NCBI GenBank assembly: GCA_964576205.1
Contig: CAZNUL010000011.1
Location: 756 to 64,755, forward strand
Source: an uncultured Fimbriimonadaceae bacterium
GTDB lineage: Bacteria > Armatimonadota > Fimbriimonadia > Fimbriimonadales > Fimbriimonadaceae
Direction: 5' to 3'
Length of the DNA stretch: 64,000 bases
Shown here: positions 36,291-43,556 of the stretch, piece by piece
Numbering within the stretch: position 1 is the stretch's first letter
How the letters are laid out: the number at the start of each line of letters is the position of its first letter
Position numbers and translations under genes: made by a program
The notes under the pieces: generated by a model
The model's database searches: none
Told to the model about the DNA's origin: nothing
Seen by the model: only the letters and a program-made list of their open reading frames with translations

Positions 36291-38372
36291 CTACCCCTCG
36301 ACTTCGTTCGGGAACAAGACCTTGCTCGAGGGGTGGTCGATGAGATACTGCTGAATCGTGAACGGCTTTCCGTCAGGAACGCGGCGCAGGTAAGAACCGT
36401 CGGGCTCCATGTCCCAGGCGTTCGTGTTATCGCAGAAGTAGCGCCCAAGGATTTGGTCGCGAACGTGAGCGATCAGGTCGGGCCTGGCGATCGGCACAAG
36501 CACTTCGATGCGGCGATCCAGATTCCGGCGCATGAGATCGGAGCTTCCGATCAGGAGCTCGGGATTGCCGCCATTCTCGAAGTACAGGACACGACTGTGT
36601 TCGAGGAATCGACCGACGACGGAGATCACGCGAATGTTTTGACTCAGGTCGGGAATGCCGGGCCTGAGCGTGCAAATACCGCGGATGATGAGGTCGATCT
36701 CGACCCCGGCATCGTTGGCTTCATAGAGTGCGTTGATGATGTCGGGATCGACGAGCGAGTTGAGCTTGAAAATAATCCTGCCCTGCGAGTGTCGGGTTTC
36801 GCGACGGATTCGCTGAATGACTGCTTCGCGTAGTCCAGTTGGCGCTACGAGCAGCTTCCTGTAGTCTCGCTGACGACTGAATCCGGTCAACACGTTGAAT
36901 AGCTCCGCGACGTCTTGGGTGATACTGTCGTCGGCCGTGAACAAGCCCAGGTCGGTGTAAAGGAGAGCGGTCCCCGGGTTGTAGTTACCGGTCCCGATGT
37001 GCGCATAGGTTCGGACACCGCCCGAGCCCTTCCTAACGATGAGGCAGAGCTTGCAATGTGTCTTGAGCTCTGTGAAACCGTAAGTGACATGCACGCCCGC
37101 CTGTTCCAAGGCTCTCGCCCAGCCGAGGTTGTTACTTTCGTCGAAGCGGGCTTTTAGCTCGACCATGACGGCCACCTGCTTTCCCGCCTCAGCCGCCGCG
37201 AGAAGGGCCTCGACGATCGGGGAGGGAGTTCCCACCCGGTAGAGGGTCATTTTGATGCCGATGACGTCGGGATCGACGGCCGCCGACCGCACATAGTGTT
37301 CGACCGGTCTAAAGCTGTCGAACGGATGGTGGAGGAGGGCGTCGGTCGAATCGAGCTGTTCGAAGAGAAGCTTCGAAGTCGAAAGCGAGTCGGCGAGATA
37401 CGGCTGGAAACGGGGATACCTTAGGTCGACGCGATCGATCGCCGACAGCTCCCAGAGCGCGTCGAGGCCGAGAAGGCCGTTTCCCTCGTGGAGATTCTGC
37501 GGGCCTAGGTCCAGGATCTCCATGAGCTGGCCGCGGACCGACTCCGGCATGTCGGCGCTAACCTCCAGCAGGACCGGATCGCCGAAGCGACGCTGTTTGA
37601 TCGTTTGTTCGATGGTCTCGAGGAGATCGCCGGCCTCGAGCTCTCTTATTTCGATGTCCGCATCCCGGATCACTCGAAACACGTGGGTGGCAAAGATCTC
37701 AACGCCGGGAAACAAGGCGCCGAGATTGTTCCGTATCAGGTCTTCGGCCAAGACGAACGAGTGACCTCGGTTTCCAACCCGTACGAGCCGAGGGAGAACG
37801 CTCGGCACTTTCACACGCGCGAGCCGGCTGTTCCCTTGCTCGTCGTTCAGAATGGCCGCGATGTTGAGGCTGCGATTCGAGATAAAGGGGATTGTCGTCG
37901 CCGGATGCAGGATCAGGGGGGTGCACAGAGGAAAGATGTTTTTTCTGAAGTAGGCATCGAGCTCGTGCTTCCGCTTGTCGCTGAGGCCGTCGTACGGCAC
38001 AATCCCGACTCCTTGGGCGGCAAGAGCCGGAAGCAGCTCGCCATGCAAGATCTCTGAGGCGTGCCGCCGCATCGGGGGAACGGTCTTTGCGATCAGGCTG
38101 AGCTGTTCGGAGGGGCCGAGTCCGTCCGGGGTCATCTCGTAGAGCCCGCTCTCGTTCTGCTCCATGAGGCCCGAGACACGAACCATGTAGAATTCGTCGA
38201 GGTTCGACTCGAAGATGGCGAGGAACTTCAGTCGCTCGAGAAGCGGATTCTCCGGTCGCGACGCCTCTTCTAGGACTCGCCCATTGAATTGGAGCCAACT
38301 GTATTCGCGGTTGACGAAGCGGTCCGAACGCAGCCACTTCTTCGCCTTCGGCGCGCGCCTTAGAGAGGACAA
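36291..38372 (-). CDS. ppk1: Polyphosphate kinase 1
   Basis: FVNREYSWLQFNGRVLEEA, the LDEFYMVRVSGL N-domain and the HxK-type C-domains. The proposed TTG start at 38372 has GGAGGA 8 nt upstream and gives 693 aa. The track's longer ORF overlaps ppx. Confidence 0.85.
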   Translation of the reverse strand: MSSLRRAPKAKKWLRSDRFVNREYSWLQFNGRVLEEASRPENPLLERLKFLAIFESNLDEFYMVRVSGLMEQNESGLYEMTPDGLGPSEQLSLIAKTVPPMRRHASEILHGELLPALAAQGVGIVPYDGLSDKRKHELDAYFRKNIFPLCTPLILHPATTIPFISNRSLNIAAILNDEQGNSRLARVKVPSVLPRLVRVGNRGHSFVLAEDLIRNNLGALFPGVEIFATHVFRVIRDADIEIRELEAGDLLETIEQTIKQRRFGDPVLLEVSADMPESVRGQLMEILDLGPQNLHEGNGLLGLDALWELSAIDRVDLRYPRFQPYLADSLSTSKLLFEQLDSTDALLHHPFDSFRPVEHYVRSAAVDPDVIGIKMTLYRVGTPSPIVEALLAAAEAGKQVAVMVELKARFDESNNLGWARALEQAGVHVTYGFTELKTHCKLCLIVRKGSGGVRTYAHIGTGNYNPGTALLYTDLGLFTADDSITQDVAELFNVLTGFSRQRDYRKLLVAPTGLREAVIQRIRRETRHSQGRIIFKLNSLVDPDIINALYEANDAGVEIDLIIRGICTLRPGIPDLSQNIRVISVVGRFLEHSRVLYFENGGNPELLIGSSDLMRRNLDRRIEVLVPIARPDLIAHVRDQILGRYFCDNTNAWDMEPDGSYLRRVPDGKPFTIQQYLIDHPSSKVLFPNEVEG

Positions 38373-40888: not shown

Positions 40889-41488
40889 ATGCCTCGGGTA
40901 GCGCTGCCTCTCGTCCATAAGGCCCTAAAGCGTGCGGTCAAAGCCCACAAAAGGCAGGACCGGGATGGCGAATTCCCGCTGCCCTATGCGACCCATCCTG
41001 TCGACGTTTTGAATCTCCTATGGTACGACGCGGACGTGCGAGACGAAGAGATTCTGGCAGCCGCGCTTCTACATGACGTCCTGGAAGAGACGGATGAGGA
41101 GGTTCAGGGTCTTAGGCAGGCATTCGGGGAACGAGTAGCGCGGATCGTCAAGGAACTTACCCGCGACGAGCCGGACCGGACCGGGCTCTCCGCAGAGGAG
41201 ATTTGGCAGGTCCGGACTCAGGCTATGCTCGAAGAGATTGACCGAATGGGAGAGGAAGCGAAGCTGATCAAGCTTGCCGATCGTGCCTCAAATCTTCGGT
41301 CCGCTCTCTTGACTCGCAGTGGTGACGCGCTGAACAAATACATCCGGCAATCCCACCTGATACTCGAACACATCGATCGCGAGATTTGCCCCTTGCTATG
41401 GGACCGCGTCAAGGATCTGGCGGCTACGGTGTCGGTTCCGAATCGGACGGTGAATTTCGCTGAAGAGCTCGAAATTACTCTGAGCTGA
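40889..41488 (+). CDS. HD-domain (p)ppGpp hydrolase-like protein (small alarmone hydrolase type)
   Basis: YATHPVDV ... AALLHDVLEETD is the HD motif of RelA/SpoT-type hydrolase domains. The 199-aa protein has no synthetase domain. Confidence 0.65.
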   Translation: MPRVALPLVHKALKRAVKAHKRQDRDGEFPLPYATHPVDVLNLLWYDADVRDEEILAAALLHDVLEETDEEVQGLRQAFGERVARIVKELTRDEPDRTGLSAEEIWQVRTQAMLEEIDRMGEEAKLIKLADRASNLRSALLTRSGDALNKYIRQSHLILEHIDREICPLLWDRVKDLAATVSVPNRTVNFAEELEITLS

Positions 41489-41501
41489 CCCTTGTGCGGG
41501 G

Positions 41502-41647
41502 GGTAGTGGGTCAGTTTGGATGTGGCATCGCCTTCTAGGCGATGTGTGCCAGGAGCTTCCAGCTCCTGCTTCCGGCGGCTGGAAGCCGTCGACACACACT
41601 CCGGCAAGATGCCGGAGCCACGAGAAAATGCAAACTGAGCCACTACC
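41502..41647. mobile_element. MITE-like element: 146 bp with 17-bp terminal inverted repeats and a flanking direct repeat
   Basis: GGTAGTGGGTCAGTTTG (41502-41518) matches the reverse complement of CAAACTGAGCCACTACC (41631-41647) at 16 of 17 positions. TGCGGGG abuts both ends (41495-41501 and 41648-41654). The interior holds 3-4 hairpins. Confidence 0.6.
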
Positions 41648-41687
41648 TGCGGGGGCCGAATTCAGGTTCAAAAGGTAAACTTCTGAG

Positions 41688-43556
41688 ATGCCCGCTCACA
41701 TCCGCAACGTCGGCATCATCGCGCATGTCGACCACGGAAAGACGACGTTGGTCGACGCCATTTTCAAGCAGGCGGGAATCTTTCGCGAGAACCAGCACAT
41801 GGGCGAGCGGATCATGGATTCGAACGACCTCGAGCGTGAAAAGGGCATCACGATTCTTTCGAAGGTCGCGAGCGTTCGCTACAGAGACATTAAAATCAAC
41901 ATCGTCGATACTCCCGGCCACGCCGATTTCGGCGGCGAAGTCGAGCGCGTGCTGTCGATGGTCGACGGCGTGCTGCTCGTCGTCGACGCAAACGAGGGTC
42001 CGATGCCGCAAACGCGATTCGTCCTCAAAAAGGCATTTGAGAACAAGCTGAAGCCGATCGTCTTCATCAACAAGATCGACAGGGACAACGCACGCCCGCT
42101 TCACACCTACGACAAGACGATCGACCTCTTCATAGACCTCGGCGCCGATGAGGACGACCTGTTCTTCCCTCACCTCTATGGAAGCGGGGCAGGAGGCTAT
42201 GCCCGTGTCGAACCGGACGGCGGCGAAAAGGACATGCGCGAGCTGTTCGAAATGATCGTCAACGCGATCCCACCGCCTCGAGTCGAGTTGGAGGGCGCTT
42301 TCCTGCTCCAGGTCAACAATCTCGATTACAGCGATTATCTCGGCCGGATGTTCGGCGGCAAAGTTCTGCGCGGAACAGTAAAGGTTGGCGACCGAGTCGA
42401 GCAACTTCGCGAGGGCAGCGACAAAAAGTCCGGCTTCAATGTGACCAAGCTCTGGACTTACGAAGGGATCCAGATGAAGGAGGTCGAGGAAGTCTCGGCC
42501 GGCGAGATTGCCATGCTCGCCGGACTTGACAACGTGTTGATCTCTGACACCATCGCCCATGTTGATTCCACCGAACCTCTCCCGGCGATCAAAGTCGAGC
42601 CATCGACCCTTTCAATGAACTTCTATGCCAACAACTCGCCGCTCGCGGGCAAGGATGGCGGGCGATTCCTCACGATTCACAAGATCCGGGAGCGAGTCGA
42701 GAAAGAGGAAGCCGTCTCTGTCAGCGTGAAGATCGATACGAACACCGCTCCGGATACCGTGAAGGTGCAGGCCCGGGGTGAGCTACAGCTCGCCATCCTC
42801 GTCGAGACAATGCGGCGCGAGGGCTACGAAATGCAGATCTCGCGCCCGCAGGTGATCTATCAACGTGGCATCTCGGAGGGGTCGCCGGCCAGCCATCGAC
42901 AAGGCGCCGATGCCACCGTGTACGAGCCGTTCGAAATCGCGATTCTGGAGATGCCCGAGGAGTCGGTTGGACTCGCGATGGAGGACATGAGCCGGCGCAA
43001 GGGCGACCTCGTCGATATGCGCAAGAGCGATACCGGCACGACCACGCTCGAGTACTCGATACCGACCCGCGGGCTGATTGGATTTCGATCCCAATTCCTG
43101 ACCATGACGCGCGGCCTCGGAATCATCTCGAGCCTGTTCGACGGCTACAAGCCCTACAAGGGTGAAATCACCGACCGGACCCAGGGCTCGCTGATTGCCA
43201 AGGACCCAGGGAAGCTGACCCGCTATGCTTACGAAGATGTTCAGGAGCGGGGCACGCTTTTCTATCCGGTGGGAATCGACGTCTACGGGGGCATGATCGT
43301 CGGAGCATGCTCGCGTGACGAGGACATGATCGTCAACGCGACCAAGGAGAAGCACGCGACGAACATCCGCTCCGCGACCTCCGAATCGACCATCGCCCTC
43401 GATCCTTATAAAGAGTTCTCGCTGGAACAAGCGCTCGCCTGGCTTCGCGACGACGAGCTCCTTGAGGTCACGCCAAAGCAGCTTCGCTTCCGGAAGAAGA
43501 TCCTCGACCATTCTGAGCGCCGCGTTTCCGAGCGGCGCAGCGAGGTTCTGGTTTAG
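41688..43556 (+). CDS. typA: Translational GTPase TypA/BipA
   Basis: G1 motif [24 protein letters not shown] and NKIDR, with EF-G-like domains. Confidence 0.95.

Follow-up and report, generated by a model that had tools for sequence, protein, structure and literature searches.

The window, which is the whole analysed stretch of 64,000 nt, contains a short element with inverted ends between an HD-domain gene and typA. It comes from a draft genome of 3.77 Mb in 94 contigs with a GC content of 59.5%, and this assembly is 92.9% complete. The features of the locus are listed below, with TIR standing for the terminal inverted repeats and TSD for the target-site duplication.

40889 to 41488, + strand: upstream HD-domain gene, 199 aa (Pfam HD_4 54.3 bits, HD 28.8 bits)
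41495 to 41502: left copy of the TSD, TGCGGGG(G), 7 bp if the TIR starts at 41502 and 8 bp counting the last G
41502 to 41518, + strand: left TIR GGTAGTGGGTCAGTTTG, an IS1-type end (GGnnnTG...), the same in 11 of 11 full copies
41522 to 41621: four-hairpin palindromic core of 100 nt, GTGGCATCGCC...GGAGCCAC, from a genus-resident repeat family that also occurs without TIRs
41631 to 41647, - strand: right TIR, top strand CAAACTGAGCCACTACC, reverse complement GGTAGTGGCTCAGTTTG, 1 mismatch to the left TIR
41648 to 41655: right copy of the TSD, TGCGGGGG, identified by a direct-repeat search
41688 to 43556, + strand: typA/bipA, 622 aa (Pfam GTP_EFTU, EFG_C, BipA_C)
42867 to 42917: decayed, internally deleted core remnant in frame within typA, CGTGGCATC...GATGCCACC

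The physical description given in the initial annotation was borne out by the sequence. The 17-bp TIRs at 41502-41518 and 41631-41647 are complementary at 16 of 17 positions, TGCGGGG is present at both 41495-41501 and 41648-41654, the four internal hairpins could be identified, and the typA ATG is found at 41688, 41 nt past the element. The element had also been described as having no ORF of its own, and indeed the only frames touching its 146 bp are of 52-169 aa, extend outside of it and are not preserved in other copies; no transposase gene is present inside it. The left TIR starts 13 nt behind the stop codon of the HD-domain gene. In a repeat search the inverted repeat could be extended to 20 nt at 90% identity (41502-41521 and 41628-41647), and for the TIR pattern with up to 2 mismatches 0.00 chance matches are expected in the window.

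The direct repeat at the junctions was found to be 8 nt long, TGCGGGGG, located at 41495-41502 and 41648-41655, with the last G of the left copy also being the first G of the TIR. Because of the G-run the boundary of the TSD is ambiguous by one base. Since the family-wide target duplication is 8 bp, the typA copy is better parsed as an 8-bp TSD with a 145-bp element than as the 7-bp TSD and 146-bp unit of the initial annotation. The AAAGGTAAACT motif ahead of the typA ATG was left undamaged by the insertion and is also kept in the congeners G002-G004. The predicted fold of the element reaches -92 kcal/mol on the + strand (z = -7.9 compared with shuffles) and -82.7 kcal/mol on the minus strand (z = -6.8). 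In a Logan contig from run SRR12313479, which begins within the element (element positions 98-146) and continues into the same typA, the right junction is present as well; it is therefore not confined to the MAG assembly.

Elsewhere in the window, a solo TIR-like site (GGTAGAGGGTCATTTTG, 37238-37254, 2 mismatches) was observed, apparently within a coding sequence. No partner end was found within several kb of it. The site may be a relic or a chance match; by a rough count ∼0.01 such sites are expected per window.

Copies in the genome and the locus in relatives

Eleven full-length copies of the element were identified in the same genome, each on a different contig and with matches ending exactly at the TIR termini. 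Three further copies are cut by contig ends (C13:1-102, C73:1-54 and C56:25154-25206), and several degenerate copies occur besides. Because every copy has unique flanks, it is unlikely that the copies are assembly duplications. The family also explains contig breaks in the assembly, since three contigs end inside copies of it.

A perfect direct repeat was observed at the junctions of 8 of the 11 full copies. Seven of these repeats are 8 bp long and all different from each other (C46 CATCGGTC, C15 TATTTCTG, C59 CGTTATCC, C8 GGTCTTTG, C42 CAGAGCCG, C21 CATCATCT and C49 CAACCTGA(A)), and the eighth, that of the typA copy, has 7 or 8 bp. At the C47 copy the direct repeat is off by one base, and no clear TSD was found at the C51 and C60 copies (2 of 11). 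The interpretation of the element as a MITE, which had been put forward from the window alone, is confirmed by this multicopy occurrence (11 full and 3 contig-end copies), by the TSDs and by the IS1-type ends.

The full-length copies fall into two subfamilies. Subfamily A comprises eight copies including that of typA, with a mean pairwise identity of 98.3% and three identical members. The three copies of subfamily B share 97.7% identity among themselves and 86.6% with subfamily A. The typA copy departs from the consensus of subfamily A at two points only, where an ACAC run is longer by one AC and a single A is missing. Judged by these identities, subfamily A is a young burst.

Several copies are located close to genes. 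The copy at C49:7247-7390 lies 107 nt upstream of tuf (EF-Tu), that at C42:21295-21438 lies 44 nt upstream of tRNA-Gln(CTG), and that at C21:23281-23424 lies 56 nt upstream of tRNA-Thr(CGT). With the typA copy counted, 4 of the 11 copies precede translation-apparatus genes (typA, tuf, tRNA-Gln and tRNA-Thr) at distances of 41-107 nt, and from these four there may be a target preference for such positions.

In the congener G003 the order of the HD-domain gene and typA is kept with a spacer of 52 nt that contains no element, compared with 46 nt for the spacer of the window when the element and one copy of the duplication are subtracted. The element is absent upstream of typA in all three congeners G002, G003 and G004. 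This comparison of the locus, with the syntenic spacer of G003 and the element-free G002 and G004, favours the MITE. The site of the C42 copy, between a gene end and tRNA-Gln, is likewise uninterrupted in G003, and for the C49 (tuf) site no alignment across the junction was obtained with the congeners. A single TGCGGGG(G) at the exact empty site was not found, the spacers of the relatives being too diverged, and scans of metagenome contigs for the joined empty site and for the typA-proximal flank gave no match. The TIR was not found in four congeners, where one match with 2 mismatches was no better than the control, and an IS1-type transposase was present in none of these four and in 3 of 40 relatives searched.

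Because the ancestral spacer is short, the element is probably transcribed together with typA, where it would form a very stable leader structure. It is unlikely, however, that the MITE was co-opted by the host to tune typA, be it as an RNase III target or a stabilizer within the leader, or as a barrier that separates the HD-domain gene from typA. Such a role would fit the transcribed position suggested by the 52-nt spacer of G003, the long imperfect duplex that is formed and the position of 4 of 11 copies ahead of translation-apparatus genes. Correia and ERIC elements alter the stability of co-transcripts. Against co-option, the insertion is a recent one restricted to this genome, which leaves little time for selection; the upstream-of-gene pattern comes from 4 of 11 copies; and neither a sigma-70 promoter nor an intrinsic terminator was found between 41200 and 41800.

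IS1-family ends and candidate helper elements

The ends of the MITE are shared with elements from distant hosts. More than 120 genome records contain the 17-mer GGTAGTGGSTCAGTTTG, and they come from many phyla, among them Acidobacteriota, Gemmatimonadota, Planctomycetota, Verrucomicrobiota, Proteobacteria, Actinomycetota and others. Inverted pairs of this 17-mer delimit elements from 68 bp to 4.6 kb, most of them with perfect 8-bp TSDs, and in ∼20 elements with these ends from other genomes the TSDs also differ from copy to copy. Some are other MITEs with the same ends and unrelated interiors (L089 with 125 bp and L093 with 152 bp). Full-length IS1-family elements of 2.5-4.6 kb with identical 17-bp TIRs and 8-bp TSDs are found in many phyla. 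A full-length IS with the same ends, for which the initial annotation had suggested a search, thereby exists, and two close relatives of it are present in the same genome. The IS1 family has ends of the form GGnnnTG and target duplications of 8-9 bp, and the GGTAGTG ends and 8-bp TSDs of the typA-upstream element agree with this consensus.

The large elements encode a protein of 280-300 aa with an N-terminal HTH and a DDE domain. These transposases match Pfam DDE_Tnp_IS1 (PF03400) with 30-48 bits against a cut-off of 24.1. The best match in NCBIfam is transpos_IS1, but with 82 and 62 bits it stays below the cut-off of 100, and therefore the transposases are distant members of IS1. They are single ORFs of 274-303 aa without the two-frame layout of insA and insB'. 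Their closest plasmid homologues, with 48-50% identity, are named 'IS1 family transposase' by PGAP. Passengers on the large elements include HTH/M78, MazF and STAND ATPase proteins, and Bro-N on C6. We take the partner elements to be a single-ORF, passenger-carrying branch of IS1, ISMhu11-like in the terms of ISfinder.

One element of 3370 bp, which is not annotated as a transposon, is located on plasmid p_1 of Mesorhizobium loti 582 (CP050295.1:470343-473712; L221 1796-5165). Both of its ends are perfect copies of GGTAGTGGGTCAGTTTG, and its TSD is CGCTGGTG. Besides the gene annotated as an IS1 family transposase, it encodes an HTH protein of 367 aa and contains a 'histone H1' ORF and one hypothetical ORF. 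The host is a cultured rhizobium, and the element would make a convenient laboratory representative of the end family.

Two IS1-family elements with a transposase were identified in the genome that carries the MITE.

C26:33436-36384: IS1-family element of 2949 bp, TIR GGTATTGGGTCCGTTTG, TSD CGGTTTTG
C6:20140-23745: IS1-family element of 3606 bp, TIR GGTAGTGTCCTAATTTG, TSD GGATATTG

In both of them the transposase frame is open, that of C26 lying at C26:35533-36366, and conserved CDE...TDG...ER motifs are visible. The C26 element further contains two unannotated ORFs of 277-307 aa, each with a hydrophobic segment, and the C6 element a Bro-N domain protein and a 352-aa ORF. Within this 92.9%-complete assembly no transposase-bearing element with the exact TIR of the MITE was found, only those of C26 (2 mismatches) and C6 (5 mismatches). 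The C26 element agrees with the MITE at 15 of 17 TIR positions and at 18 of 20 bases of the left end. By this resemblance of the ends it is the nearest candidate helper, and it is the likely one to mobilize the MITE in trans.

Two further loci with such ends were observed. At C29:12299-12315 a perfect solo end (GGTAGTGGGTCAGTTTGAATGACTGG) is present, for which no partner was found within 7 kb; a Y1_Tnp match lies 3 kb away (C29:9040-9309). At L031 2154-3892 (C19:12153-13891), two non-autonomous elements with the same TIR are arranged head to tail, with lengths of 1394 and 337 bp, and the 8-mer CAAGTTCG is found at each of the three junctions. The 1394-bp unit itself includes two further degenerate joints of a right end with CAAGTTCG. 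Both units have small ORFs of the signal-peptide or membrane type (65-110 aa) but lack a transposase. This array looks like the product of repeated insertion into one hot target or of tandem amplification.

The hairpin core as a separate repeat

The interior of the typA-upstream element also occurs on its own. Many matches in the same genome and in G001, G003 and G004 span only element positions 21-121 and are without TIRs. This TIR-less unit is 94-103 nt long, runs from GTGGCA to TGCCAC and consists of four 8-bp hairpins with the loops TTCCA and TGGAA. At one locus, L203 (G004:C254:380-940), three partial cores are found in tandem with a spacing of ∼139 nt; elsewhere the copies are solitary.

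An alignment of 18 distinct copies was used for covariation analysis of the core. In this alignment, 93.6% of the hairpin cells are paired and compensatory changes are seen in 22 of the 32 pairs. The covariation score is 0.431 compared with 0.126 in shuffles, none of 500 shuffles reached 0.431, and a control with slid partners gave at most 0.066. From these scores it is concluded that the core hairpins are under a real structural constraint, as a dispersed repeat and not as an RNA of typA. The nested hairpins noted in the initial annotation are, by the same covariation, not just filler of a MITE and form a separate palindromic module resident in the genus.

Four TIR-less cores are located within genes of the same genome.

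C31:9517-9613: core in the MurD ORF
C31:14248-14350: core in the linker of the order-wide MurC-Ddl fusion
C16:15839-15932: core in a Ro/TROVE-like ORF
C53:23125-23221: core in a GT2 glycosyltransferase ORF

All four share one reading frame and give the recurring peptide GTAFQAVS..GFQPE..HRLEGDAT, which in MurD reads GGTAFQAVSDSGFQPEIQDQDGPGTHRLEGDAT. Each insert consists of the core and 2 nt and has a length that is a multiple of 3. In G003 and G004 the MurD insert is present as well, and G001, G002 and other genera are without it; G003 and G006 lack the MurC-Ddl insert. Core copies in open frames are found in congeners too, for example in a UvrA-like gene. In typA itself, the remnant at 42867-42917 corresponds to aa 395-410 (16 residues). 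At this codon position a full core is present in frame in the TypA of G004, and E. coli BipA (PDB 4zck) shows a gap of 13 residues there. The MurD orthologue of G001 (L057, G001:C126) has an open frame of 612 aa compared with ∼455-506 aa in other genera, and contains further long low-complexity insertions at other positions that do not match the core; there may be other families of in-frame inserts in the genus.

That the whole 146-bp unit is of the REP/REPIN type and was moved by a Y1 transposase (RAYT, IS200/IS605-like) instead of a DDE enzyme is very unlikely. The core with its four GC-rich, quasi-palindromic hairpins has a layout resembling REP doublets or BIMEs, and seven Y1_Tnp (PF01797) matches are present in the genome; however, none of these is on a contig carrying core copies, and lone hairpins are not enriched in the genome beyond the ∼24 core loci. 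The 8-bp TSDs and the TIRs are common to DDE (IS1) elements and are not products of Y1 transposition. Furthermore, no GTAG or CGTC tag was found in the hairpin consensus (definition in PMC3733652). On the TSDs, the lack of Y1 genes near the core and the lack of hairpin enrichment, this idea was rejected for the TIR-bounded unit.

The second reading offered in the initial annotation, a typA-specific cis-regulatory leader or small RNA closed by the 17-bp TIRs as a P1 helix, is extremely improbable and effectively refuted by the dispersed copies and the absence in congeners: although the fold is very stable, the element lies 41 nt ahead of the typA ATG and compensatory changes are seen in the four inner hairpins across copies, this covariation belongs to a dispersed repeat family and not to typA orthologues, the element is present at at least 14 unrelated loci and missing upstream of typA in three congeners, one of them syntenic, the 'P1' arms are IS1-family transposon ends found in many phyla, and an Rfam scan gave only noise (best match TLS-PK1 with 19.5 bits against a gathering score of 80).

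Proposed origin and comparison with known systems

The typA-upstream element is very probably explained as a gene-less MITE with IS1 ends that was moved in trans, is part of a young burst and has a chimeric body. In the proposed mechanism, an HTH and DDE transposase of the single-ORF, passenger-carrying IS1 branch would recognize the 17-20-bp TIRs, cut the ends in trans and join them to target DNA cut with a stagger of 8 bp, as is expected from the mechanism of the DDE family. Repair of the stagger would then give the 8-bp duplication, here TGCGGGGG. The helper would likely be the 2.9-kb element at C26:33436-36384 or an unassembled copy with exactly matching ends, and the typA copy would have arisen by insertion into the ∼46-nt spacer between the HD-domain gene and typA.

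A horizontal source of the IS1 ends is proposed because searches of the four congeners detected neither these ends nor the transposase. IS1-type elements would thus have reached the lineage horizontally, after which a minimal TIR pair would have taken up the resident core. The resulting chimera, with the layout TIR17 + GAT + core100 + GAGAAAATG + TIR17, would have been amplified afterwards. Capture of the resident core between IS1 ends is the simplest history. Whether the chimera joins two independent mobile systems, with the core spreading independently of a transposase or by one of the Y1 type and the IS1 capture providing a second, much faster route, is an evenly balanced question. If this is the case, the typA locus would record both routes, the first by the decayed in-frame copy within its coding sequence and the second by the fresh, TIR-bounded one in the leader, and the core would be tolerated in frame in essential genes.

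For annotation this means that the structured 146 bp ahead of typA should not be described as a riboswitch or sRNA. The element adds one family to the very widespread group of IS1 elements with GGTAGTGG ends, by which passenger genes are moved between phyla of soil and water, and its chimeric build is a small, testable case of the acquisition of a MITE interior. With the copies that lie in frame in murD, murC-ddl and typA, RPE-like 'selfish DNA inside genes' is extended to a further lineage; palindromic repeats within genes are already in print for other bacteria (PMC10969869; PMC3733652).

With the IS1 family, the typA-upstream element and its partners share the GGTAGTG (GGnnnTG) ends, the 8-bp TSDs, a partner transposase with HTH and DDE domains, and passengers. 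In contrast to IS1, the typA-upstream element has no transposase, and its partners lack the insA/insB' frameshift pair of E. coli IS1. An IS1-type MITE with a TIR close to GGGTAGTGGCT has the same type of ends as the typA-upstream element but another interior. Correia elements of Neisseria and ERIC elements of enterobacteria, which are MITEs found inserted in 5' leaders, are similar in that they are small, have TIRs and a TSD, occur in multiple intergenic copies, form a strong hairpin and are frequently co-transcribed with the neighbouring gene (PMC10969869), and differ from the typA-upstream element in the parent IS family and the TSD length.

The core on its own is best compared with palindromic repeats inside genes. 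The Rickettsia palindromic elements (RPE) are in-frame repeats within genes (Ogata et al. 2000/2002, as summarised in PMC10969869), and among intragenic REPs the families are defined by GTAG/CGTC tags (Di Nocera et al., 2013, PMC3733652). Like these, the core is a hairpin palindrome that is found in frame in unrelated housekeeping genes and gives a recurring peptide, and as for RPE the orthologues in relatives are without the insert, a likeness of behaviour only. The core differs in having no GTAG/CGTC tags, in its fixed array of four 8-bp hairpins and in being captured between IS1 ends. Neither this chimeric origin nor the double presence of the core at typA alters the category of the element, and it is concluded that the typA-upstream element is a genuine but ordinary MITE of the IS1 family.
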